From Escherichia coli (GTDB lineage Bacteria; Pseudomonadota; Gammaproteobacteria; Enterobacterales; Enterobacteriaceae), in the NCBI RefSeq assembly GCF_030013595.1, contig NZ_CP122768.1: a stretch of DNA of 64,000 bases; one strand, written 5' to 3'. Position 1 is the first letter of the stretch. The number at the start of each line of letters is the position of its first letter. The position numbers were made by a program, and so were the translations under genes. Positions 4,055 through 58,788 of this stretch are shown here, in pieces. The notes under the pieces are model-generated. The model made no database searches and had not been told where the DNA came from. It saw only the letters and a program-made list of their open reading frames with translations.

Positions 4055-5419
4055 ATGATTAGTGCATTCGATATTTTCAAAATTGGGATTGGTCCCTCCA
4101 GTTCGCATACCGTGGGGCCAATGAATGCCGGAAAAAGTTTTATTGATCGGCTGGAAAGTAGCGGCTTATTAACCGCGACGAGCCATATTGTGGTCGATCT
4201 GTACGGGTCGTTGTCACTGACGGGCAAAGGCCATGCCACGGATGTCGCCATTATCATGGGACTGGCAGGAAACAGTCCGCAGGATGTTGTCATTGATGAG
4301 ATCCCTGCATTTATAGAGTTAGTAACGCGCAGCGGGCGGCTGCCAGTGGCATCTGGTGCGCATATTGTTGATTTTCCTGTAGCAAAGAACATTATCTTCC
4401 ATCCCGAAATGTTGCCTCGCCATGAGAACGGAATGCGGATCACTGCCTGGAAGGGACAGGAAGCGCTATTAAGTAAAACCTATTACTCTGTCGGCGGCGG
4501 GTTTATTGTCGAAGAAGAACACTTCGGCCTGTCGCACGATGTCGAAACGTCCGTACCTTACGATTTCCACTCAGCAGGTGAACTGCTGAAAATGTGTGAT
4601 TACAACGGCCTGTCTATATCTGGTCTGATGATGCACAACGAGCTGGCGCTGCGCAGCAAAGCGGAAATTGACGCCGGTTTTGCCCGTATCTGGCAAGTGA
4701 TGCATGACGGTATTGAACGCGGGATGAACACTGAAGGCGTGCTGCCTGGTCCGCTCAATGTGCCGCGTCGTGCCGTAGCGCTGCGTCGTCAGCTGGTTTC
4801 CAGCGATAACATCTCTAACGATCCGATGAATGTCATCGACTGGATCAATATGTACGCGCTGGCGGTTAGTGAAGAAAACGCAGCTGGCGGGCGCGTGGTG
4901 ACGGCACCGACTAACGGTGCGTGCGGCATTATTCCGGCAGTGCTGGCTTATTACGATAAGTTCCGTCGTCCGGTAAACGAGCGGTCAATTGCCCGCTATT
5001 TTCTGGCAGCGGGGGCTATTGGCGCGCTGTATAAAATGAACGCCTCCATCTCTGGCGCGGAAGTCGGCTGTCAGGGGGAGATTGGCGTGGCCTGTTCAAT
5101 GGCGGCGGCAGGGTTAACTGAACTCCTGGGCGGCAGTCCGGCGCAGGTGTGCAATGCGGCGGAAATCGCGATGGAGCATAACCTTGGGCTGACCTGCGAT
5201 CCGGTTGCCGGACAGGTACAAATCCCGTGCATTGAACGTAATGCCATTAATGCCGTGAAAGCAGTAAATGCCGCACGGATGGCGATGCGCCGCACCTCGG
5301 CACCGCGTGTTTCACTCGATAAAGTGATCGAGACGATGTATGAAACCGGCAAAGATATGAACGATAAATACCGCGAAACATCACGCGGAGGACTGGCCAT
5401 TAAAGTGGTCTGCGGCTGA
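4055..5419 (+). CDS. tdcG: L-serine dehydratase TdcG
   Basis: 454 aa from [23 protein letters not shown]. Single-chain alpha/beta serine dehydratase. Confidence 0.93.
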
Positions 5420-10924: not shown

Positions 10925-11821
10925 ATGGCCAAAGAAAGGGCATTAACGCTGGAAGCACTACGGGTTATGGATGCGATCGATCGCCGGGGCAGTTTTGCGG
11001 CGGCGGCGGATGAGCTGGGACGCGTGCCTTCCGCACTTAGCTACACCATGCAAAAACTGGAAGAAGAGCTGGATGTGGTGCTGTTTGACCGCTCGGGCCA
11101 TCGCACCAAATTCACCAATGTCGGGAGGATGTTGCTGGAGCGAGGGCGCGTTTTGCTGGAAGCCGCAGATAAACTGACTACTGATGCGGAAGCTCTCGCG
11201 CGCGGTTGGGAAACGCATCTCACCATTGTGACCGAAGCGCTGGTACCGACACCTGCCTTTTTCCCGTTAATCGATAAACTGGCGGCAAAAGCCAATACCC
11301 AACTGGCAATTATCACCGAAGTGCTGGCGGGGGCGTGGGAACGGCTGGAGCAGGGGCGGGCGGATATCGTTATCGCGCCGGATATGCATTTTCGTTCCTC
11401 GTCGGAGATCAACTCGCGCAAGCTCTATACGTTAATGAACGTCTACGTTGCCGCGCCTGATCACCCGATTCATCAGGAGCCGGAACCGTTATCTGAAGTG
11501 ACGCGCGTGAAATATCGTGGAATTGCGGTGGCGGATACCGCTCGTGAGCGCCCGGTATTGACCGTACAGCTACTGGACAAACAGCCGCGTTTAACGGTGA
11601 GCACGATTGAAGATAAACGTCAGGCATTACTGGCGGGGCTTGGCGTGGCGACGATGCCGTATCCGATGGTCGAAAAAGATATTGCGGAAGGGCGGTTGCG
11701 TGTCGTCAGCCCGGAATCGACCAGCGAGATCGATATTATTATGGCCTGGCGTCGTGACAGTATGGGGGAAGCGAAATCCTGGTGTCTGCGGGAAATTCCC
11801 AAACTTTTTAGCGGAAAATAA
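10925..11821 (+). CDS. yhaJ: LysR-family transcriptional regulator YhaJ
   Basis: 298 aa. N-terminal LysR HTH (SFAAAADELGRVPSALSYTMQKLE). Divergent from yhaK. Confidence 0.92.
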   Translation: MAKERALTLEALRVMDAIDRRGSFAAAADELGRVPSALSYTMQKLEEELDVVLFDRSGHRTKFTNVGRMLLERGRVLLEAADKLTTDAEALARGWETHLTIVTEALVPTPAFFPLIDKLAAKANTQLAIITEVLAGAWERLEQGRADIVIAPDMHFRSSSEINSRKLYTLMNVYVAAPDHPIHQEPEPLSEVTRVKYRGIAVADTARERPVLTVQLLDKQPRLTVSTIEDKRQALLAGLGVATMPYPMVEKDIAEGRLRVVSPESTSEIDIIMAWRRDSMGEAKSWCLREIPKLFSGK

Positions 11822-49577: not shown

Positions 49578-50342
49578 ATGAATAACTCCCCCCGCTACCC
49601 GCAGCGCGTTCGCAATGATCTGCGCTTCCGTGAATTGACTGTGCTACGCGCTGAGCGTATTAGCGCCGGTTTTCAGCGCATTGTCCTTGGCGGCGAGGCG
49701 CTGGACGGTTTTACATCGCGCGGCTTTGACGATCACAGCAAACTCTTCTTTCCTCAATCTGATGCTCACTTTGTGCCGCCAACGGTAACGGAAGAGGGCA
49801 TCGTCTGGCCGGAAGGACCACGCCCACCGTCGCGTGACTATACGCCGCTGTATGACGAACTACGCCATGAACTGGCGATTGATTTCTTTATTCACGACGG
49901 TGGCGTCGCCAGCGGCTGGGCGATGCAGGCGCAACCGGGCGATAAACTCACGGTGGCAGGTCCGCGCGGTTCGCTGGTGGTGCCAGAGGATTACGCGTAT
50001 CAGCTGTATGTCTGCGATGAATCCGGAATGCCCGCACTGCGCCGCCGCCTGGAAACGTTGAGCAAACTTGCCGTTAAACCGCAAGTTAGCGCGCTGGTTA
50101 GCGTGCGGGATAACGCCTGTCAGGATTATCTCGCGCACCTTGATGGTTTTAATATCGAATGGCTGGCACATGATGAGCAGGCAGTAGATGCGCGTCTGGC
50201 GCAGATGCAAATCCCTGCCGATGATTACTTCATCTGGATAACCGGCGAAGGCAAAGTCGTTAAGAATTTAAGCCGCCGCTTTGAAGCGGAACAGTATGAT
50301 CCACAGCGGGTACGTGCAGCGGCTTACTGGCACGCAAAGTAA
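49578..50342 (+). CDS. yqjH: NADPH-dependent ferric-siderophore reductase YqjH (NfeF)
   Basis: 254-aa ORF in the siderophore-interacting FAD-binding family. Confidence 0.93.
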   Translation: MNNSPRYPQRVRNDLRFRELTVLRAERISAGFQRIVLGGEALDGFTSRGFDDHSKLFFPQSDAHFVPPTVTEEGIVWPEGPRPPSRDYTPLYDELRHELAIDFFIHDGGVASGWAMQAQPGDKLTVAGPRGSLVVPEDYAYQLYVCDESGMPALRRRLETLSKLAVKPQVSALVSVRDNACQDYLAHLDGFNIEWLAHDEQAVDARLAQMQIPADDYFIWITGEGKVVKNLSRRFEAEQYDPQRVRAAAYWHAK

Positions 50343-50360
50343 CTGATATATAAAAAGAAA

Positions 50361-50390
50361 AAGGCTGACGATTTCTCGTCAGCCTTTGCT
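50361..50390 (+). terminator. hairpin terminator after yqjH
   Basis: AAGGCTGACGA-TTTC-TCGTCAGCCTT, followed by TGCT. Confidence 0.6.
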
Positions 50391-50467
50391 ATGTCTGGCC
50401 CTGCTGTCTCTTAATTGGTTGTGTAATTAATTGAAATTAAACAGGTAAATGCAATTTATTTTTTATC

Positions 50468-50489
50468 GATATGCCTTTTTGTATGCCTA
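50468..50489. repeat. 22-nt repeat GATATGCCTTTTTGTATGCCTA (distal island end)
   Basis: 20/22 identical, in direct orientation, to 58569-58590 next to int. Candidate integrase arm-type sites. Confidence 0.6.
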
Positions 50490-50916
50490 TTGGGAAAAAC
50501 ACGCTTTCTTCAACAGGGAATAAAAGCCGCTTTTATGGTGTTTTGAAACGGGTTTTAAAATGGCGCTCGTGGTGCTCTCGGGCACTCAATGGCGCTCTGT
50601 GATGTGGCTGGTGGTATGTGGCCGCCATGCATAATGGGGCTGATTTTGTTCATGGCCCGGCAGCGGGTGAGCATTTTTTACCATATTCAGGGTAAAAATG
50701 GGCGAAAAAGTTCATTTCTGGCATGGCCTGAAATGCCACGCAGCCCGCGCCGCGTGTGCTCTTGCCGGGGAAAACGGCGCGGAATAATGACCGCCACCCC
50801 ACCTTATGGCGGGCAGTCCCACGAAATCCCGGTTATTTCCGTTTATTCCCGGATTAATCCCGCCTTCTCCCGCATTCTCCCGGCTGTTCCCGGAATTAAT
50901 CGCCGTGGGGTGGTGG

Positions 50917-51207
50917 TTATCTGGTGTGGTCGTAGTTCTGCCGTAGTCGTTCACCCTCAGCGCAATGACGCGGTTTTTTAACGCCGCTGGTAACGCAACG
51001 CGGGCAGGTCATGACGTGGCTGATATACGCATCACGGGCAGCCAGCCACGTCGCTGACGGGGCGCACATATCCGCCAGCGCCTGGCCGTTGCTGGTGGTG
51101 TTGTCTTCCGGCCATGTTTCGGGCTGGTGCGCTTCCGGTAAATCCGGTGCAGGTAATGCCCGGATAAACTCACACAATGCATCCGGCAGGCTGAATAACT
51201 TATGCAT
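50917..51207 (-). CDS. hypothetical 96-aa ORF (doubtful)
   Basis: ATG start but no obvious SD. Shares a ~29-nt patch with the helicase gene. Contains CPRC...HC. Confidence 0.3.
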   Translation of the reverse strand: MHKLFSLPDALCEFIRALPAPDLPEAHQPETWPEDNTTSNGQALADMCAPSATWLAARDAYISHVMTCPRCVTSGVKKPRHCAEGERLRQNYDHTR

Positions 51208-51630
51208 AAATCTGATGTTCTGAATCGCTGAAAACGTGCGTTTTATGGCGTTTTTTCGTGATTTCTGCGTGTTCTGATGTGCTCATTTCGCTGTATCCCT
51301 TGTGTGGCGCGGGCTGCGCGTGTGTTTCGGTGTTCTTTTTTACCGCCAGAAAACGGTAATCAGGCATATAAACACGGCTGTAAGCCGCGCCGCGTCTGGC
51401 TTCGCGTGATTTTGTGCGTCAAAAAGTGCATTTTTGCCCTTAAAAAGCGTTATTCGTAATTCACTGGTAAATGCTCCGCAGGCCGCGCCATTGCTGGCCT
51501 TTTCGCTATTCTGTGTGGTTTTGCTGTTTAACCCGTTTTGCACACTAAAATTGCCTTGCATCCCGCGCCACGTAAGGGATTGCCGGGTTTTTATGTTGCG
51601 TTTTTTGCCGTGCGTAATATTGTGCAAGTT

Positions 51631-51871
51631 GGTGGGACTGGTGGGAACTGTGGGAACCGCCTAGAACCACGCGGCTTTCAGTGGTTCCCACCAGTTCCCA
51701 CGTTGGCTTTTTGTGGGAACCGTGGCGGTTATTTTTTGTTCTTTGCGGTTCCCACCAGTTCCCGCAGAGTTCCCACTCAAAAACGAACAATAATCATACT
51801 GATGGTTTTATTATTTACTGATTTATATATGTTTTATTTTTACGGTTCCCACAGTTCCCACCAGTCCCACC
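51631..51871. repeat. iteron cluster, the putative island replication origin
   Basis: 12 copies of GTGGGAAC/GTTCCCAC (three degenerate) at 9-11-bp spacing. Perfect 28-bp inverted repeat 51631-51658 / 51844-51871. An AT-rich stretch at 51777-51843. Lies directly 3' of the helicase gene. Confidence 0.7.
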
Positions 51872-51906
51872 ACTTTTTCAGTTTTTAAAAACGCAATTTT
51901 TGTGAA

Positions 51907-53745
51907 TTATTCATCAATTGCGAATAACAATGCATTCTGGCCGATGGCGTAAACGCGGTGTTTCTCCCCGTTAACGGAAACGCGTTTTGTGTATCGGCGT
52001 TTCCCGTCCGTGTCGCGGTCAACAATCGCGCCAGCATCGTCAAGACTGGCCGCTATGCGTTTCAGGTCGTAGCCGCTGGCCGCCTCACATAGTGCTTCCG
52101 GTAAAAACCAGTAAACCCGCTCGCCGTTGCTCCCCGGTCGCCACCATCCGGCGCGGGTGCTTACTGGTTCGCTGTATGTGCTGCCCCCTTCAAAGCGTGA
52201 AGCATGGCGGGCGATAAACCCCGCGACGGCCCGGAGTATTTTCACGTCCTCCGATTGCCCCCGCCCACGATAGTCCGCCCACGCATCAAACATCGCTTTC
52301 ACTGCCTCCAGTGCTTCGCCCTGTTTCCACGGCAGAATCCCGGCAGTTATCGCCATTTCCCCGGCCAGTGCGCACAGTGTGAAACGCGCGGCGGCGCGTG
52401 CCTCCTGTCCGGTGCTTACGGGGAATTGTTCGCGCAGTATGGCGTACATATCCGCCAGCGTCTGGCCGTTGCTGTCGGTGCTGGTGGTGTCACTTTCATT
52501 GCGGGAAATCAGCCAGCGCACAAACTCCGGCCCGGCGTGGCCGTAATGGGTAGCCGCATTACCGCGCAGTGTTTCGGCAAATTTCCGGCCTGCTCCCCGG
52601 CGTTCTGTGTCGTTGTCGGGGTTGTGGGGTAGTGCCATTCCGTGAAGACAGTCAAATGCCCCGTAAAGCCGCTGTGCCGGAATATCCAGTAACCGCATTT
52701 CCTGCCCGGCCTTGATGCGCTGGCCGCCGCTTTCCATGTGTTTACCCACGGTCATTTCCCCGGTGGAAATAATCATGGTGCGCCATGTGTTGACCGGGCG
52801 GGCCATGCCGGACACCTTGCCACGCTGACGGCCTGTTCCGTTGCCAAGCTGATAAATCAGCCCGCCAATATCTCTGGCCGGGGCTTCGCCAATTTCATCC
52901 AGTATCAGCGCGGTATCGTTCCGCATGGTTGCCAGCCCTTCAAGCCCGGTGCTGGTGGCGTTCCAGTTGCGTTTAAAGTTGCGGGGTTCTCCCCATACGC
53001 TACAGGCCACCAGCGCCCCCACGCTTTTCCCGCTGGAACTGTCGCCCATGAAATGAAATCCGCCGCTGTCCACATCAAGCAACCACAGCAACGGCCCGGC
53101 GAGCGATGCACACACGGCCAGCATGGTTACCGGGTTTCCCCGGCATAATGCGGCCACGTTGTCGCGCCAGCCCTCCGGCGTTCCTGCGGTGGCGTACTCC
53201 TGTGAGCCTGCTTCTGTTGACTGAAACACCACATCACCATCACCGATAACCCCGCCCGGCATGACAAACAGGGCCGGGGAGTGCCACCCGGTGGCCGTGG
53301 CCGCGAGCGCCCGGCGTTTTGGTGCTGACTCCATGATGTATTCAGTCAGTGCCTGCCGTTGTTTGTAGGGAATGGTAACGCCCATGCGTAGCAGTTCCTG
53401 CCGGAGTTCTCCGCCGTCTCCGGCGAGCATTTCCATCGGTGCGGCCCATTCCCGCCACTGGCCTGACGGCGTGAGAAAACGGAGTAATCGCCCGTAGTTT
53501 TCGTCTTTGCTGTCGCTGGTCATGGCGATGACCTCCAGCGGGGAACATATAAACGTGTCTGTGTTGGTTGAGTCGCGCACGCCGTGCCAGTAAAGGCCGG
53601 GTTTCAGTATCTGGCCGCCGTCCACCTGTACATGCTGCGAATAAGTGGCGTAGCCCGGACGCGCCGGGCTGACTTTGGGGTGTTTCTTGCGTGGTGGTTT
53701 TCTCTTCCCGGATGTGACCGGGGTTTTAGTGGTTGTCCGGGTCAT
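51907..53745 (-). CDS. DUF927-type / SF3-like replicative helicase
   Basis: 612 aa. Walker A GDSSSGKS and Walker B ALILDEIGE are visible. Its start overlaps the primase stop by 20 nt. Confidence 0.8.
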   Translation of the reverse strand: MTRTTTKTPVTSGKRKPPRKKHPKVSPARPGYATYSQHVQVDGGQILKPGLYWHGVRDSTNTDTFICSPLEVIAMTSDSKDENYGRLLRFLTPSGQWREWAAPMEMLAGDGGELRQELLRMGVTIPYKQRQALTEYIMESAPKRRALAATATGWHSPALFVMPGGVIGDGDVVFQSTEAGSQEYATAGTPEGWRDNVAALCRGNPVTMLAVCASLAGPLLWLLDVDSGGFHFMGDSSSGKSVGALVACSVWGEPRNFKRNWNATSTGLEGLATMRNDTALILDEIGEAPARDIGGLIYQLGNGTGRQRGKVSGMARPVNTWRTMIISTGEMTVGKHMESGGQRIKAGQEMRLLDIPAQRLYGAFDCLHGMALPHNPDNDTERRGAGRKFAETLRGNAATHYGHAGPEFVRWLISRNESDTTSTDSNGQTLADMYAILREQFPVSTGQEARAAARFTLCALAGEMAITAGILPWKQGEALEAVKAMFDAWADYRGRGQSEDVKILRAVAGFIARHASRFEGGSTYSEPVSTRAGWWRPGSNGERVYWFLPEALCEAASGYDLKRIAASLDDAGAIVDRDTDGKRRYTKRVSVNGEKHRVYAIGQNALLFAIDE

Positions 53746-54769
53746 GCTCCATTTCCCATAGCATCAAATCGTTAAAGTCGGAAAGGTCTGGTGATGCACC
53801 GGGCGGCCATTCCGGGAATGTGACGTAACACCCGGCCAGCAATGCGGCTTCGTTGGCTGCTCTGGAACCGGGGTTATCTTTTGATGCCCGGTCATCATCC
53901 CCGGCGATAACGAGAGATATGCGCGAGCCGTATCGCTCACGCAGCGCCATAGCCACATGTTTAAGGTTTCCCGCATTCATGGCACACACCACGGCCATGA
54001 CGTTCCAGTACTGGAGAAGGGCGGCCCCGGTGGCCCACCCCTCACACACGTAAACGTCATGTTCCGGCGCTTCCGGGGCCATCAGGTCAAAGCTCCCCAT
54101 AACATGGAAAGCCCCCTGCACCTGACCATCACGGAGAAACATTTTTCGACCGTCCGGGCTGATAATCTGCACGTTCACCACTTCGCCGCATACGTTGTAC
54201 AGCGGGACAAGCAAATCATTACCTGACTGATACAGATTGCCGGGCTGTAGCCGTTTTTTCATGAGATAGGGATGAGAAGGGTTTGCCACCTCCGCCCGGC
54301 CAAGCAACTCAAAGGCCCGGCAGGCGGTCAGTTTCTGGCGCTGGTGGCGCTGTTGCTGTTCCCGCTGGCGGAGTCTGGCCGCCTCCTGTTCTGCGGCCTG
54401 TACCCGCACCCGTTGCGCCTCCCGTTGTTCGCGGGTCATTACATCAGGTTTGCCCAGCGCGGGCAGGCACAGCCCCAGCCTGTCCGCCACAATACGGGCG
54501 GCATCAGTCTGCCGCACATTCCATAAATAAGCCCCCAGCGCCACAAGGTCGCCGCCGCTGTCCCCGGTGGCGAAGTCGTGCCAGCATCCGTCCACCAGCG
54601 AGACGGAAAAACTGCCCGCGTGACGGTCTGCACGCGTGGGGTTACGACACACCCATTCAGTGGCCTGCCGTTTACCTTCGGGCAGCCATTCGGGAACAAG
54701 GATTTCTGCATGTTGTGCCGCCACTGCGGCAACGCTACGGATTGCGTTAATCGTGGCTATGTCACGCAT
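53726..54769 (-). CDS. Toprim-domain DNA primase (P4 alpha / bacteriophage-type)
   Basis: 347 aa from the ATG at 54769 (MRDIATINAIRS...). Toprim-like VYVCEGWATGAAL and LVIAGDDD acidic motifs. The 397-aa ORF is an upstream extension. Confidence 0.75.
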   Translation of the reverse strand: MRDIATINAIRSVAAVAAQHAEILVPEWLPEGKRQATEWVCRNPTRADRHAGSFSVSLVDGCWHDFATGDSGGDLVALGAYLWNVRQTDAARIVADRLGLCLPALGKPDVMTREQREAQRVRVQAAEQEAARLRQREQQQRHQRQKLTACRAFELLGRAEVANPSHPYLMKKRLQPGNLYQSGNDLLVPLYNVCGEVVNVQIISPDGRKMFLRDGQVQGAFHVMGSFDLMAPEAPEHDVYVCEGWATGAALLQYWNVMAVVCAMNAGNLKHVAMALRERYGSRISLVIAGDDDRASKDNPGSRAANEAALLAGCYVTFPEWPPGASPDLSDFNDLMLWEMEHDPDNH

Positions 54770-55076
54770 GTTGCCCGTCCTCCCTGATTTCCCCGGTGCG
54801 GCAGCGCCAGTTATACGCCTCCACAACCTCACTGAATCCGGCCACAAGTTCAGCCGTAACAGCGATGGAATCGCCCAGGCTGCGTAGTTCATTTGGACCA
54901 AGAGCATTATTGTCGCCAATTACCGAAAGTAGCCGCCCTGTGCCAGCCAGCGCATCAAGCAGTTTGCGGGCGCAGTAATCCGCATCATCAAACATTGCGC
55001 GGGCTTCCTGTGCGTCTGCGTTTTTGATGGCCGCAACCAGTAGTTCAGGTATCCGGGTGTTATACATATCACGCAT
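54762..55076 (-). CDS. hypothetical 104-aa island protein
   Basis: Coupled at both ends through ATGCGTGA overlaps. Weak paralog of the 98-aa neighbour. Confidence 0.6.
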   Translation of the reverse strand: MRDMYNTRIPELLVAAIKNADAQEARAMFDDADYCARKLLDALAGTGRLLSVIGDNNALGPNELRSLGDSIAVTAELVAGFSEVVEAYNWRCRTGEIREDGQHA

Positions 55077-55365
55077 GGCTTACCTCCCCGGCCTGCTGGT
55101 CGTAACACTCCATCAGTTCGGCCATACAGCCAATGAGGGCAGGGGCTGTCTGTAGAAATCCGGCTAACTGGCAGATCTCGTCTCTGGAATAGGTGATGGG
55201 GTTTTCGCGTAACTGGCTTTCCTCCAGTGCCTTACCAACAAAGGCAATCCCCGCAAGTAAATTCACTCTGTGCCAGTCTGCATCAACGCGCAGACTCCAG
55301 CGGCTTTCTTCGTCCGGCATACTGCTCATGGCGGCTTTCATTGACTCACGCAGACAATCACGCAT
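55069..55365 (-). CDS. hypothetical 98-aa island protein
   Basis: Starts at the ATG at 55365 (MRDCLRESMKAAMS...), overlapping the upstream stop by 8 nt. Confidence 0.6.
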   Translation of the reverse strand: MRDCLRESMKAAMSSMPDEESRWSLRVDADWHRVNLLAGIAFVGKALEESQLRENPITYSRDEICQLAGFLQTAPALIGCMAELMECYDQQAGEVSHA

Positions 55366-55555
55366 GACGCACCCCCTGAGCCGGAACGCGGCCAGCAAAC
55401 AGCAACACAAAATCACGCGCCAGCATACGGCGGGCGGTTGTTTCATCGGGTGCGTTGACGGATTCGCGGTGTGGGCGGTCGTTCAGGTCGGAACGGCGAA
55501 CAGCCAGAAAGTGAAAGGTAAATTCAGGGTGTAACGGGGTTGGGGTCGTAGCCAT
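55358..55555 (-). CDS. hypothetical 65-aa island protein
   Basis: The ATG at 55555 is preceded by a strong AAGGAGG RBS. Begins MATTPTPLHPEFTFHFLAVRR... Confidence 0.65.
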   Translation of the reverse strand: MATTPTPLHPEFTFHFLAVRRSDLNDRPHRESVNAPDETTARRMLARDFVLLFAGRVPAQGVRHA

Positions 55556-55746
55556 TCTGGCAGCCTCCTTTTGCAAATTTAAGGAGTCACCGCCTGAGTT
55601 CCTACACTCATAAGGGGCGGTGACGCTGGCAGGGGTAGGAATACCGGCGCAAAAGGAAACCGGCCAGCCTTTCGGCTGCCCCACCAGCGCCACCATAGAT
55701 ACAGTGCGGGTCTTGCCGCTGTGCATGGGTGCGCGATGGCACGACA

Positions 55747-55775
55747 CAAAAAAAGACGCTGGGCGCGTCTGTGTC
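55747..55775 (-). terminator. intrinsic terminator within the alpA-to-replication-module spacer
   Basis: The minus strand reads GACGC-GCCCA-GCGUC followed by U7. Confidence 0.75.
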
Positions 55776-55981
55776 GCCTTTTGCTCATTAAACGGGTTCC
55801 TACGCCCGGCTGGTGGATTTACACCAGCGGGGGAAATATAACGCCCACCAGCGATGGCAGGCAAGCAATATTTGCGGTTGCCGCCCATCCCGTGGGGCGT
55901 GTGGTGGTTGTTTTGGGCGTGAGAACGCCCCGGCCCTGTTACGGGCCTTTCTGGCATTTTCATAATGATTATCGCGGTTGG
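55776..55981 (-). ncRNA. candidate structured leader or ncRNA between the alpA stop and the terminator
   Basis: Successive hairpins: GGCCC/GGGCC, GGGCGT-GAGA-ACGCCC, ACGCCCAC...GTGGGGCGT, GCTGGTG...CACCAGC. No convincing ORF or RBS. Bounded by an intrinsic terminator. Confidence 0.35.
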
Positions 55982-56236
55982 TTAGTGGCTGGTGGGTTCT
56001 TTGTTTTTTTGCGCTCTGGCGATAATTTCTGCCATTACGTTATTGCGTTCCTCCACGCGGGCCGCAAGCCATGCATTAACTTCGGATTCAAACCATCCAA
56101 CGCGGCGCAGCCCGCGACGAAAGCCGGGGATAAATTCGCCAGCCCGAATCATGTCGTCAATGCTGGTAGTGGAACGAAGGCGCAGACGCGCAGCAACCTC
56201 GCGTTTGGTGAGGATTTTATCTTGTGTGGTGTCCAT
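55982..56236 (-). CDS. alpA: AlpA/MerR-type (HTH_17) phage regulatory protein
   Basis: 84 aa from the ATG at 56236 with an AAGAGG RBS. ILTKREVAARLRLRSTTSIDDMIRAGEFIPG...WFESEVNAWL is the typical AlpA pattern. Confidence 0.8.
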   Translation of the reverse strand: MDTTQDKILTKREVAARLRLRSTTSIDDMIRAGEFIPGFRRGLRRVGWFESEVNAWLAARVEERNNVMAEIIARAQKNKEPTSH

Positions 56237-56312
56237 GATATTTCGCCTCTTAATTGTATTAATTGGCCCTAACTGGCCATAACAATATGGAAGCACAAGA
56301 AGGCGTGAAATT

Positions 56313-56348
56313 GCCGGACATGTCCATCAGATGGCTGACATGTCCGGC
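56313..56348. promoter_or_regulatory. perfect 12-bp inverted repeat GCCGGACATGTC-N12-GACATGTCCGGC, an operator or a terminator
   Basis: Lies between the stop of the 292-aa gene and the alpA promoter region. Confidence 0.5.
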
Positions 56349-56369
56349 GTATACTCATTCGTGAATTGA

Positions 56370-57248
56370 CTAATCAACCTTAAACCAGCGTCGCATGGTT
56401 TTTTGTGAGGGCAGAGATAAACCAGCTTTGCAAAAATCGTTTTCTAATTCTGTTGGCTGGCCCTTGGTTTTGTCTTCTCTTACATGAAGCCATGGTTTGC
56501 CTCGCTTCGTTTCATCCTTGTAATACAGATAAAGCAAATCATCCACAAAAGCAGGCAGTGCGCTTCTTGGGTCTGGTTGTGTCGTCGGTGATGGTAGTTT
56601 TTTGGTTATGCACCCCATTAACATCCCGTTAGCGCAATCTCTCCCGCCATCCTTAAGGATTTCGATTTCTTCGGCGGTAATAAACAGGTCATCAATGCTT
56701 ACATCGAGTGGACTGGAATCAAAAGTAATCATCGGGCTGAGGGAATAATCGTCACCGTCAGTGTTCATTGTCCTTGGCTTTCCAAGAGAAAAACGAGCCG
56801 ATGACTTTCCATATTTTACAAAATCATAAAAAGGCATGGATTTGGTCAGGTTGCATATGGACATTAACCCTTCTATGGTCAAGTACCTGTATCCCATTAA
56901 AGGTATTTGGTTTTTCGGAATACCTCTGGGACGTTCTTCACTGATAAACAGAATTGCTGTTGTGACTTCAAAATCTCCCGCGCTATATGGTGTATAGACG
57001 GTAAATGGTAGCTGACACAGTGAATCGCCAAGCGGTTTAAATAAAACATACTTATCAGTTGATTTAGTTTCATAATGGTTAAACAGGTCAATTTCAGCCC
57101 GCCACCTTCCTGATATATGTGTACAAATCTCCAGCATTCCTATGTCAGCAAAATGAAGCAAATCATCAACACTGCACTTATTGGAGTTTGCAGTCAGATA
57201 ACTGGCCGCATCGCGTAGTGAGTAAAACAATCTTTTAGGTAATGCCAT
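56370..57248 (-). CDS. orphan 292-aa protein in the int-alpA cargo slot, function unknown
   Basis: The ATG at 57248 lies 1 nt after the int TAA (TAATATG). AT-rich compared with the rest of the island. Only HTH-like patterns at the two termini are recognisable by eye. Confidence 0.75.
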   Translation of the reverse strand: MALPKRLFYSLRDAASYLTANSNKCSVDDLLHFADIGMLEICTHISGRWRAEIDLFNHYETKSTDKYVLFKPLGDSLCQLPFTVYTPYSAGDFEVTTAILFISEERPRGIPKNQIPLMGYRYLTIEGLMSICNLTKSMPFYDFVKYGKSSARFSLGKPRTMNTDGDDYSLSPMITFDSSPLDVSIDDLFITAEEIEILKDGGRDCANGMLMGCITKKLPSPTTQPDPRSALPAFVDDLLYLYYKDETKRGKPWLHVREDKTKGQPTELENDFCKAGLSLPSQKTMRRWFKVD

Positions 57249-57249
57249 A

Positions 57250-58524
57250 TTATTCACCAACCACTTTTAAGCCACGAAAACCGCCAGTTGCACTAAGGCT
57301 TCCGGTTGCTGCCTGTTCGATAAAATCACCCCACCACGCCATCAGTGGGCGGCGTTGCTCCAGATATGTGGAGCGATTGTAAGCCCGTCTCACCGTGTCC
57401 TTATCCAGATGGGAAAGCGCAGCCTCTATTACATCTGGCGGGAACCCCTGTTCATTAAGCGCCGTACTTGCTACAGAGCGTAAACCATGCGCCACCAGCT
57501 TTCCGGTATACCCCATGCGCCTGATAGCGGCGTTTGCGGTCTGTTGATGCATCCCACGCATGGGGTCGCTGTTATGTGGAAAAACAAACTTTCGATGCCC
57601 GCTGATTGGGCGCATGGCTTCAAGAATGGCCATTGCCTGATTATTCAGGGGGACAATGTGCTCCCTTCGTTGTTTTAGTCGCCCGGCTGATATACGCCAC
57701 ACTCTGGCATCTGCATCTATCTCGCTCCACTGTGCCCCGGCTGCCTCGCATGGGCGGCAAATAGTTAATAATTGCCATTCAATAACAAGACGCGTTTGAA
57801 GTTCTGCGCGAGCCGTTGCCAGTTTTTGCATAAATTCCGGCAACTCATCAGGCCTGATTGTTGGCATGTGTTTAACTACAGGTGGGTTGAATGCCTTGCT
57901 GATTTGAGCGGCGGGATTAGCTGGAATTAATCCAATATTCACTGCGTAATACATAACCTCATTGATTCTTTGTGCCAGCCGTCGCACCGTATCCGCTTTG
58001 CCCTGTGCTGATACAGGTTTCAGGGCTTCGATAAAATCCCGTGCAACCAGTTCTGTGATTGGGCGATGGCCTATGGGTGGCAGCACATGACGCTCAAGAG
58101 AACGCCATATATCACGGAGTGTATTTGCCGCCAGATTCTGGCCGCGCTTTACTTCAAACCATTCTTCGGCCACGCGCTGAAATGTGTTTAATCGCCGTAT
58201 TTCATCATCCCGGCGTTGTTTTTCCCTGTGTTCTTTGGGGTCAGTTCCATTTGCGACCAGTGAGCGATACTCGTCTTTAATCCTGCGAGCATCGGCAATG
58301 CTGATTTCGGGATATGCACCAAGGCTTAACATTGCCCGTTTTTTGGTGTGTGGCTTGTAGTACCGGAACCGCCATAAGGCTGATGCGCTACCCGCTTTCA
58401 CAACTAACTCCAGCCCATCGCCATCCGTGATAAATAAATCCTTCTCGGCGGTGAGCGATTTCTTCTGCAAACTTTTAATCGTCGCTGGTGTAAGTAATTT
58501 TGTGTTTTTGGCCACTGGTTGCAT
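57250..58524 (-). CDS. int: P4-type tyrosine integrase
   Basis: 424 aa. N-terminal arm-binding-like region (LTPATIKSL...GLELVVKAGSASALWRFRY). C-terminal AHGLRS...HLDKDTVRRAYNRSTY catalytic region. Adjacent to a tRNA. Confidence 0.92.
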   Translation of the reverse strand: MQPVAKNTKLLTPATIKSLQKKSLTAEKDLFITDGDGLELVVKAGSASALWRFRYYKPHTKKRAMLSLGAYPEISIADARRIKDEYRSLVANGTDPKEHREKQRRDDEIRRLNTFQRVAEEWFEVKRGQNLAANTLRDIWRSLERHVLPPIGHRPITELVARDFIEALKPVSAQGKADTVRRLAQRINEVMYYAVNIGLIPANPAAQISKAFNPPVVKHMPTIRPDELPEFMQKLATARAELQTRLVIEWQLLTICRPCEAAGAQWSEIDADARVWRISAGRLKQRREHIVPLNNQAMAILEAMRPISGHRKFVFPHNSDPMRGMHQQTANAAIRRMGYTGKLVAHGLRSVASTALNEQGFPPDVIEAALSHLDKDTVRRAYNRSTYLEQRRPLMAWWGDFIEQAATGSLSATGGFRGLKVVGE

Positions 58525-58568
58525 CCCGAAACAGGTTTAAGGCATACGAGATTGCTTCTGTTTGTGAG

Positions 58569-58590
58569 GATATGCCTTGATGTATGCCTA
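58569..58590. repeat. 22-nt repeat GATATGCCTTGATGTATGCCTA (int-proximal end)
   Basis: Partner of 50468-50489. An inverted AGGCATA copy lies at ~58547. Confidence 0.6.
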
Positions 58591-58712
58591 AAGAATCTGG
58601 CTTATACCTTAGCAAACTGGCCAAAACTGGACAATAAAAAACCCGCAAGCCTTGTGTGGCGCGGGTTTCGTCTGATTAACTGGCCGTATCTGATACTAAC
58701 CGAATGTCAATT

Positions 58713-58788
58713 TGGTGGCCCCTGCTGGACTTGAACCAGCGACCAAGCGATTATGAGTCGCCTGCTCTAACCACTGAGCTAAGGGGCC
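58713..58788 (-). tRNA. ileX: tRNA-Ile2 (anticodon CAU, lysidine-modified), ileX
   Basis: 76 nt: GGCCCCTTAGCTCAGTGGTTAGAGCAGGCGACTCATAATCGCTTGGTCGCTGGTTCAAGTCCAGCAGGGGCCACCA. Cloverleaf arms and encoded CCA are present. Confidence 0.93.

Follow-up and report, generated by a model that had tools for sequence, protein, structure and literature searches.

A predicted iteron-type replication origin beside the DUF927 helicase gene of a PICI-type island at Escherichia coli tRNA ileX

INTRODUCTION

The Rep proteins of Staphylococcus aureus pathogenicity islands (SaPIs) are self-loading helicases whose C-terminal winged helix binds 6 to 12 iterons immediately 3' of rep, around an AT-rich region where they probably load as two hexamers (PMC9371898, PMC7581432). 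The origins of Gram-negative phage-inducible chromosomal islands (PICIs) share this organization, and the rep-ori segment of one of them, EcCICFT073, drives plasmid maintenance (PMC6092414). Proteins with the domain of unknown function DUF927 are counted among the primases of Gram-negative PICIs, for which tRNA-Ile2 is a reported integration site and C4-type antisense RNAs have been described (PMC10111431). In staphylococcal cassette chromosome (SCC) elements, no origin had been identified until that of Cch2 was mapped to repeats downstream of the gene, which are bound by the C-terminal domain of the protein (PMC7581432). Here, we analyze a 64-kb stretch of Escherichia coli DNA (the window; contig NZ_CP122768.1) and report that positions 51630 to 51872, just 3' of a gene for a DUF927 Rep helicase, are very likely the vegetative replication origin of an ∼8.3-kb Gram-negative PICI-type island at tRNA ileX. 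This reading draws on sequence comparison and on analogy with the systems above. In the searchable literature, we found no mapped origin of a Gram-negative DUF927 replicon.

RESULTS

An iteron array with an AT-rich stretch follows the helicase gene

Does the DNA directly 3' of the helicase gene have the organization of a SaPI origin? The array begins 35 bp from the stop codon of the helicase gene, which lies on the minus strand, and RefSeq annotates no gene over it. Between 51632 and 51870, there are 12 sites of the GTGGGAAC type, nine of them exact copies of GTGGGAAC or GTTCCCAC and three degenerate (Table 1), with the extended consensus tgGTGGGAACyg. Four sites are forward and eight are reverse on the plus strand of the window, and sites within a cluster are spaced 9 to 11 bp apart. 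An iteron-type origin had been proposed here in an earlier reading made from the letters of the DNA and its open reading frames (ORFs) (the sequence-only reading). All 12 iterons that it listed are present with the spacing that it gave. The inverted repeat that it described is indeed perfect, but it is 30 bp long rather than 28 bp.

TABLE 1 Coordinates of the predicted origin, its parts, and neighboring features in the window
Feature	Position	Strand	Remarks
Whole predicted origin, 243 bp	51630..51872	.	12 iterons, AT-rich stretch, and conserved non-iteron element
Distal arm of perfect 30-bp inverted repeat	51630..51659	+	Forward iterons at 51632 (degenerate, GTGGGAC), 51641 and 51650 (exact, GTGGGAAC); invariant in six related copies
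Conserved GC-rich element CCGCCTAGAACCACGCGGCTTTCAGTGG	51657..51683	+	Between convergent iterons 51650 and 51684; also in origins of other initiators
Iteron pair	51684..51701	-	Reverse; starts 51684 and 51694 (exact)
Lone iteron	51713..51720	+	Forward; exact
Iteron triplet	51748..51776	-	Reverse; starts 51748 (exact), 51758 (degenerate, GTTCCCGC), 51769 (exact)
AT-rich stretch, candidate DNA-unwinding element, 67 bp	51777..51843	.	Contains the island's least stable 50-bp duplex
Helicase-proximal arm of 30-bp inverted repeat	51843..51872	-	Reverse iterons at 51845, 51854 (exact), 51864 (degenerate, GTCCCAC)
Non-coding DNA by the origin, about 420 nt	51208..51629	.	80- to 100-bp repeat units; weaker copies of the GCCGCGCC..CTGGC-type element
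DUF927 Rep helicase, 612 aa	51907..53745	-	Homologue of SaPIbov1 Rep and SCCmec Cch
C-terminal winged-helix domain of helicase (residues 495-612), predicted iteron reader	51910..52263	-	Weak Pfam HTH_56 match, structural model, allele switching
Toprim-domain primase, 347 aa	53726..54769	-	20-nt overlap with helicase start
P4-family tyrosine integrase, tRNA end of island	57250..58524	-	Family scan and annotation

Elsewhere in the window, a single exact copy of the 8-mer is found, at 11335; within the island, there are no exact copies outside the array, and copies with one mismatch are scattered singles at chance frequency. Shuffled windows held a mean of 1.75 and a maximum of 6 exact copies, and all 100 shuffles fell short of the number observed. 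A perfect 30-bp inverted repeat with 183 bp between its arms resembles a miniature transposable element with terminal inverted repeats. However, the interior of this one is made of the same 8-mer, and no flanking target duplication is visible. Moreover, of 5,426 complete E. coli genomes, the 31 that have the helicase gene are also the 31 that have the array, at two or more integration sites; in every one of them the two are adjacent and each is single-copy. This constant single-copy pairing rules out the transposable element, and we rejected it; together with a chance repeat, it retains a next to negligible probability.

The AT-rich stretch that the sequence-only reading saw between the last two clusters is real. 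The GC content of positions 51790 to 51849 is 0.22, and the 50-bp segment starting at 51790 has a duplex stability of -50.2 kcal/mol, compared to an island mean of -72.0 kcal/mol (standard deviation, 5.6). Across the whole window, 39 of 63,950 positions are less stable. By analogy with SaPI origins, melting may begin in this stretch.

The same design is present in S. aureus. The Rep protein of PT1028 matches the crystallized SaPIbov1 Rep (8tch) over its full length (1,224 bits), and directly 3' of its stop codon lie nine exact GGGAAC/GTTCCC sites and three degenerate ones, 12 in total, around an ∼85-nt AT-rich core. The window thus has in common with a SaPIbov1-type origin a homologous initiator-helicase, a location 3' of rep, the GGGAAC core, the same nine exact and three degenerate sites, and an AT-rich stretch inside the array; in both, a separate primase gene lies upstream of the helicase gene. 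As in SaPI and PICI origins generally, the iterons, between 6 and 12 in number, occur in both orientations immediately 3' of rep with the AT-rich region inside their array. The same hexamer and the homology of the Rep proteins make the PT1028 and E. coli origins look homologous, not merely analogous. The E. coli locus differs in its Gram-negative host, in an iteron extended to 8 to 11 bp, and in outer triplets that form a perfect inverted repeat. Its int-alpA-pri-rep order is unidirectional, as in Gram-negative PICIs, and it carries a GC-rich non-iteron element; no such element was seen on reading the PT1028 origin.

The array recurs beside related helicases with a lineage-specific iteron

We compared 80 loci with relatives of the helicase (36 to 99% identity) and five close enterobacterial loci; the search for DUF927 loci gave 554 confirmed matches. 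In 32 of the 62 loci analyzed, the 300 bp 3' of the helicase stop codon had the highest exact-8-mer repeat count of the ∼11.7-kb locus, with up to 11 copies in the array versus 2 to 5 in coding controls. Read by eye, the design recurs in Salmonella, Klebsiella, Pseudomonas, Herbaspirillum, and Caballeronia, that is, from Enterobacterales to Burkholderiales. A triplet lies 20 to 45 bp past the stop codon and an inverted triplet 200 to 245 bp further on, with pairs and singles between them. Twelve sites are the commonest number (16 of 36 loci; range, 5 to 15), and in relatives from high-GC hosts the array is dyad symmetric (>>> < >> << > <<<). The sequence-only reading's comparison with SaPI and PICI origins, in position as well as in iterons around an AT-rich core, is borne out by these relatives and by PT1028.

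The word itself changes with the lineage: GTGGGAAC, CCGGGAAC, C(C/T)GGGAAC, GGGGACA, AGGGAAC, GGGTGACA, GGGTTAC, GGTGTAAC, GTGCCAC, and GAAGACA all occur. The iterons that were closely read all end in ..AC, with an optional A or C after it. Constancy of position and design, combined with a word that changes, is what one expects of an array to which an initiator binds. Within one allele, the sites are conserved. Among six copies (the window, three E. coli islands at another integration site, Escherichia albertii, and Tenebrionibacter), 3 of 94 iteron positions vary, compared to 49 of 149 other positions (Fisher P = 5e-9). In the Tenebrionibacter copy, the AT-rich stretch has diverged in sequence and retained its composition.

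The array is not universally placed. The 11.2-kb circular element pHS87b of Pseudomonas aeruginosa (locus L083), for which its authors report no known replication gene and measured a circular form about twice as abundant as the integrated form, has genes for Int, Toprim, DUF927, a P2-family capsid protein, and an ogr/delta-type protein. A circular element with a Toprim-DUF927 module lends indirect support to autonomous replication from a rep-ori segment of this kind. In pHS87b, a small ORF follows the helicase gene, and an iteron-like run begins only beyond it, ∼650 bp downstream of the helicase gene (read up to 7600). The 10.2-kb vB_Pae_U10 (PP003922), also from P. aeruginosa, has int, Toprim, and DUF927 genes and was deposited as a phage, whereas pHS87b was deposited as a plasmid; both look like P2-type satellites that use the DUF927 replicon family. 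In several Halomonas, Pseudomonas, and Methylomicrobium loci (L025, L026, L046, L051, L009, L017, and others), the conserved GC-rich element of Table 1 scores just upstream of the helicase start, at about 4820 to 5003 of the locus, and not past the stop codon; the origin may be placed differently in these lineages.

The helicase C-terminal domain is the likely reader of the iterons

The helicase has a P-loop-type motif, GDSSSGKS (residues 234 to 241), and an acidic motif, LILDEIGE (residues 280 to 287), which we read as Walker A and B. Its best sequence match, in both the PDB and NCBIfam, is SCCmec Cch (5dgk, E = 1e-17; NCBIfam SCCmec Cch1), followed by SaPIbov1 Rep (8tch, E = 1e-12); Cch2, for which the origin was mapped, belongs to a different helicase family. 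An AlphaFold (AF2) model of the protein (mean pLDDT, 69; about 87 in the C-terminal third) finds 8tch (E = 6e-15) and 5dgk (E = 3e-14) as its best PDB matches over ∼590 to 610 alignment columns, with TM-scores of only 0.38 to 0.48 and an identity of only 15 to 18% over the Foldseek structural alignment. Modeled alone, residues 495 to 612 give a pLDDT of 87.5 and a pTM of 0.81, and they match the 8tch C-terminal domain best (TMq, 0.65). After it come the relaxosome accessory protein 5vfx, in its oriT-bound form, and regulators of the CRP, MarR, and PadR families, all of which we take to be winged-helix folds. In Pfam, residues 503 to 601 weakly match the helix-turn-helix (HTH) domain of Cch (HTH_56). 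The sequence and fold matches to 8tch and 5dgk place the protein among the SaPI Rep/Cch-like helicases that end in a winged-helix domain, and on the model of the SaPI Reps it would be a self-loading hexamer.

Which part of the helicase reads the 8-mer? Over residues 29 to 500, proteins P0001 to P0018 are mostly 74 to 95% identical to the window protein, falling to 67% in the loop at 361 to 430. Over residues 501 to 612, they separate into alleles. P0001 to P0005 are 72 to 98% identical to the window protein and have GTGGGAAC in every locus read (window, L002, and L004), whereas P0006 and P0008 to P0018 are 43 to 57% identical and have GGGGACA in all five loci read (L085 to L089). P0007 (57 to 60%) falls outside both alleles, and Brenneria P0019 (L003) has a third C-terminal allele with the iteron C(C/T)GGGAAC. 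This switching of the iteron with residues 501 to 612 points to the C-terminal domain as the iteron reader. The sequence-only reading had assigned binding to the N-terminal domain; that assignment does not fit an iteron type that switches with the last ∼110 residues. On sequence and model evidence, the winged helix at residues ∼495 to 612 is the likely reader of the 8-mer.

The same co-variation bears on an operator array. The repeats could be bound by an island regulator (AlpA-like, Ash, Icd-like, or the 96-aa protein) and either control a downstream gene or terminate or insulate the pri-rep operon. They do lie where that operon ends, with ∼420 nt of non-coding DNA separating them from a conserved small gene downstream, and inverted repeats could act on RNA too; a weak terminator-like hairpin is present at 51718 to 51730, on the plus strand, i.e., not the helicase strand. 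However, a promoter scan of 50300 to 52100 found no sigma-70-type promoter, and Rfam gave nothing at threshold over the array (a sub-threshold plastid-family match at 51710 to 51761, E = 0.1, was taken as chance). The iteron type tracks the helicase C-terminal allele, and the array follows DUF927 helicases where the regulatory genes differ, as well as in S. aureus. An operator is therefore quite improbable.

Comparison with EcCICFT073, P4, and iteron plasmids

EcCICFT073 shares with the island int, an alpA-type HTH gene, an Icd-like gene, small ORFs, replication gene(s), and an origin. That origin, too, lies directly 3' of the replication gene and has ∼12 short iterons in both orientations, an AT-rich stretch, and an CTGAAAGCCGCG... 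element between iterons; SSB and PerC genes come after it, as in the longer copies of the present island. The initiators differ. The EcCICFT073 Pri-Rep is a D5_N/DUF5906/Pox_D5 protein that is not significantly similar to the DUF927 helicase, GGTAGA(C/T)A is the iteron of that island, and its primase and helicase are not the separate proteins found here. The ileX copy, at 8.3 kb, also lacks capsid, packaging, and interference genes.

Phage P4 shares with the island a P4-family integrase, a Toprim_3-type primase domain, octamers in both orientations directly 3' of the replication gene, and a C4/CI-type immunity RNA; the island has Ash and Icd-like genes as well. In P4, however, the octamers immediately 3' of alpha make up crr, with the origin 4.5 kb distant (annotated record and sequence). 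A position 3' of the helicase gene is thus no proof, on its own, that initiation occurs there, and the array could be a cis-acting accessory or copy-control site bound by Rep, like the cis-required crr or the handcuffing iterons of plasmids, with initiation elsewhere. Three observations make this unlikely. The island has one iteron cluster, other one-mismatch copies being scattered at chance frequency, whereas P4 has two, ori and crr; the least stable duplex of the island lies inside that cluster; and the helicase belongs to the SaPIbov1 Rep family, which has a single cluster 3' of rep, and not with P4 alpha, a D5-type helicase (D5_N/Pox_D5) fused to its primase. A P4-like satellite would carry sid, psu, delta, epsilon, and alpha with cos and a bipartite ori and crr. 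The island has a DUF927 helicase and a single iteron cluster, and sid, psu, and delta had no match among the ten of its ORFs that were scanned.

Theta-type iteron plasmid origins (RepA/pi/TrfA) have direct repeats of 17 to 22 bp, a winged-helix initiator that is not a helicase, and usually DnaA boxes. The repeats here are 8 bp long and in both orientations, the candidate initiator is a helicase, and 51630 to 51872 contains no DnaA box or integration host factor (IHF) consensus; one relaxed DnaA-like 9-mer, at 51536, is no more than expected by chance. The replicon combines a P4 alpha-like Toprim_3-type primase domain, a SaPIbov1/Cch-type helicase, a SaPIbov1-type origin, and the gene order of Gram-negative PICIs.

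A GC-rich element is shared with origins of other initiators

The GC-rich element is ∼25 nt long, with a consensus of about CTGAAAGCCGCGCCATTACTGGC; besides the window, instances are found in L091 (19181 to 19205), L096 (3001 to 3023), L097 (3001 to 3025), and L083 (7689 to 7710). Pseudomonas and Burkholderiales origins have related elements in the same place, often one per end and inverted. The element of the EcCICFT073 origin is CCACTGAAAGCCGCGCCATTACTGGC. A profile built solely from nine Pseudomonas and Burkholderiales instances was run against test DNA totaling 254 kb, where its three highest-ranking matches were the window element (E = 3.8e-4), pHS87b, and the EcCICFT073 origin. Weaker copies occur in the 420-nt non-coding stretch, at 51376 to 51401 and in the repeat units.

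The element also occurs in lambdoid phages. A 55-mer from EcCICFT073 matched 814 E. coli genomes, and the partial matches that covered only the element lay in lambdoid prophages, inside replication genes of the O/gp18 type. In two of these prophages, which we read, direct iterons stand on either side of the element (ATGTGCGG in the first prophage and GGACAACCGTT in the second), with an AT-rich stretch adjoining and a DnaB-like helicase gene next. Sf6, HK75, HK106, mEp234, ST64T, and phage L have the same type of phage origin, annotated there as a putative origin, and element-only matches were obtained in Kapi1, JEP4, an Stx2 phage, and two Aeromonas phages. Origins of this Sf6/HK/P22 type share with the window an ∼23-nt element, CTGA(A/G)AGCCGCGCCATTACTGG, flanking short iterons, and an adjoining AT-rich stretch. 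They differ in lying inside the initiator gene O/18, in an O/gp18-like initiator with a DnaB-like helicase, and in iterons that are direct repeats on both sides of the element, with sequences unrelated to those here.

The element therefore stands in three unrelated initiator settings: the DUF927 helicases of gamma- and betaproteobacterial islands, the D5-type Pri-Rep of EcCICFT073, and the O/gp18 type. Compared by eye with sigma-54 promoters, Fis and IHF sites, DnaA boxes, and primosome assembly sites, it gave no convincing match, and a full-text literature search with its sequence returned no paper. We suggest tentatively, and with more doubt than confidence, that it is an initiator-independent functional origin module, so far as the searchable literature shows an undescribed one. 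A host factor common to these origins might dock, prime, or load there, and the element could also be a means for satellites and lambdoid phages to exploit the same replication step.

The island and its neighboring features

The island is ∼8.3 kb long, from about 50399 to 58730, between nfeF and tRNA ileX (58713 to 58788). In genomes without it, the flank match ends at 50398 and then runs into the tRNA. The region is 100% identical to chromosomes of porcine enterotoxigenic E. coli. All island genes are on the minus strand and directed away from the tRNA, in the order P4-family integrase, 296-aa protein, AlpA-type HTH protein, Ash-family ORF, Icd-like gene, two small ORFs, Toprim primase, 612-aa DUF927 protein, repeats, ∼420 nt of non-coding DNA, and 96-aa ORF. 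This is the unidirectional int-alpA-pri/rep-ori arrangement, at a specific site, of Gram-negative PICIs; such islands span 10 to 20 kb and have a post-origin module for packaging, interference, or late genes, whereas this one is about 8.3 kb long and has only the 96-aa ORF after the origin. The 296-, 125-, 104-, and 96-aa proteins had no match in NCBIfam or PADLOC, and three of them, also scanned against Pfam and PHROGs, gave nothing there.

Satellites carry packaging signals of their helpers, and the sequence-only reading had named binding by a packaging protein as an alternative. Could a protein of the helper phage or of the island use the array as a packaging (pac/cos) or partition site? 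Among the ten island ORFs scanned, there is no terminase small subunit or partition protein, no P2/P4 cos sequence was found within three mismatches, and from Staphylococcus to Burkholderiales the array is kept with the helicase, not with packaging genes. A packaging or partition site is, in our view, very improbable.

An E. coli helicase-origin module 97 to 98% identical to this one is found in longer islands at a second chromosomal site (L093 to L095), by a tRNA-Tyr gene between a yicC-side integrase and dinD. These islands have other regulatory zones, with AntA and Icd-like variants. Their origin is followed by an SSB pseudogene, PerC, and Mor, and no capsid or packaging gene is annotated in the stretch analyzed. 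The ileX copy is a shortened variant.

The non-coding DNA at 51208 to 51629 may belong to the origin. Copies of its repeat unit lie at 51384, 51482, and 51562. Salmonella and Klebsiella relatives (L085 to L087 and L089) have a non-coding region of like length and repeat content, and in some genomes the Prokaryotic Genome Annotation Pipeline (PGAP) calls inconsistent hypothetical ORFs in this type of region. Within the 96-aa ORF (50917 to 51207), 43 nt at 51061 to 51103 are 88% identical to 52441 to 52483 of the helicase gene (protein, ..SNGQ.LADM.A..); apart from the stretch that they encode, the two proteins are unrelated. We considered the ORF as a helicase remnant and rejected it, as only a 14-residue stretch is held in common.

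Just 3' of the 96-aa ORF, at 50810 to 50900 and ∼410 to 500 bp from attR, there are about seven TCCCG(G)-type motifs with a 10- to 11-bp spacing. They resemble the CCGGGAAC iterons of Brenneria and Pseudomonas relatives, and the run could be a degenerate second array or a site for a recombination-directionality factor or regulator. The attR site, at about 50396 to 50408, is marked by a partial copy of the tRNA 3' end, CTGGCCCTGCTG. An island-borne terminator-like hairpin (AACCCGC...GCGGGTT, then a T run, on the minus strand) lies at 58640 to 58675, just downstream of tRNA ileX, and a 21-nt near-copy of it (90%) lies 7.35 kb away at 51298 to 51318, beside the non-coding repeats.

On the minus strand at 55613 to 55841, Rfam identified a C4 antisense RNA (79.6 bits) and isrK (60.7 bits), with a sub-threshold c4-a1b1 target. 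This module sits inside or beside the Ash-family ORF, upstream of the Icd-like and primase-helicase genes. It resembles an RNA immunity switch of the P1/P4 type and could control the replication operon.

DISCUSSION

Our analysis supports the reading of 51630 to 51872 as the origin of the ileX island. The homology of the helicase, the position of the array 3' of homologous genes, the conservation of the iterons, their co-variation with the helicase allele, and the GGGAAC core all favor the proposal of the sequence-only reading. This kind of origin is already known from staphylococcal and E. coli pathogenicity islands, and the DUF927 island origin joins that known kind.

Several observations weigh against this reading. 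In SaPIs, opposed iterons flank the AT-rich region (PMC9371898), whereas here the AT-rich stretch is off-center, with three sites between it and the helicase gene and nine on its other side, and is flanked by triplets of the same orientation, the inverted partner triplet lying at the far end of the array. Relatives in high-GC hosts have the array without a clearly AT-rich stretch, and roughly half of the more distant loci give a weak exact-8-mer signal. On the DNA, the array adjoins the part of the gene that encodes the C-terminal domain, so that a recombination breakpoint near codon 500 would give the same pattern of co-variation through linkage. The expectation that the same iteron goes with a similar C-terminal domain failed for Agitococcus (L075), which shares the GTGGGAAC iteron and has a C-terminal domain only 26% identical. 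Lastly, the ileX copy is short and without the post-origin module of the longer copies, and PGAP annotates its ash gene as partial. Because it is short and lacks that module, this copy may no longer be mobilized.

How would such an origin work? After induction of the island, the DUF927 Rep helicase would bind the 12 iterons through its C-terminal winged helix, and two hexamers would assemble on the array (12 sites for 2 × 6 subunits), the inverted outer triplets setting its boundaries. The duplex would then open at the AT-rich stretch, the helicases, needing no separate loader, would load on their own, primers would come from the co-transcribed Toprim primase, and the host polymerase would copy the excised circle. 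In this scheme, binding, melting, double-hexamer loading, and priming are carried over by inference from the work on SaPI, Cch, and EcCICFT073.

The GGGAAC core, apparently common to staphylococcal and proteobacterial members, argues for common descent of initiator and origin and not for convergence. For the annotation of islands, the comparison suggests a rule: about 12 short sites ending in ..AC, with inverted outer triplets, 20 to 40 bp past the helicase stop codon. The matched pairs of C-terminal domain and iteron (GTGGGAAC, GGGGACA, and CCGGGAAC) offer material for specificity swaps. If the GC-rich element is functional, it would point to a step common to the replication of satellites and lambdoid phages. 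These data locate the likely origin and the likely initiator specificity domain of a DUF927 replicon whose relatives are widespread in islands of Enterobacterales, Pseudomonas, and Burkholderiales.

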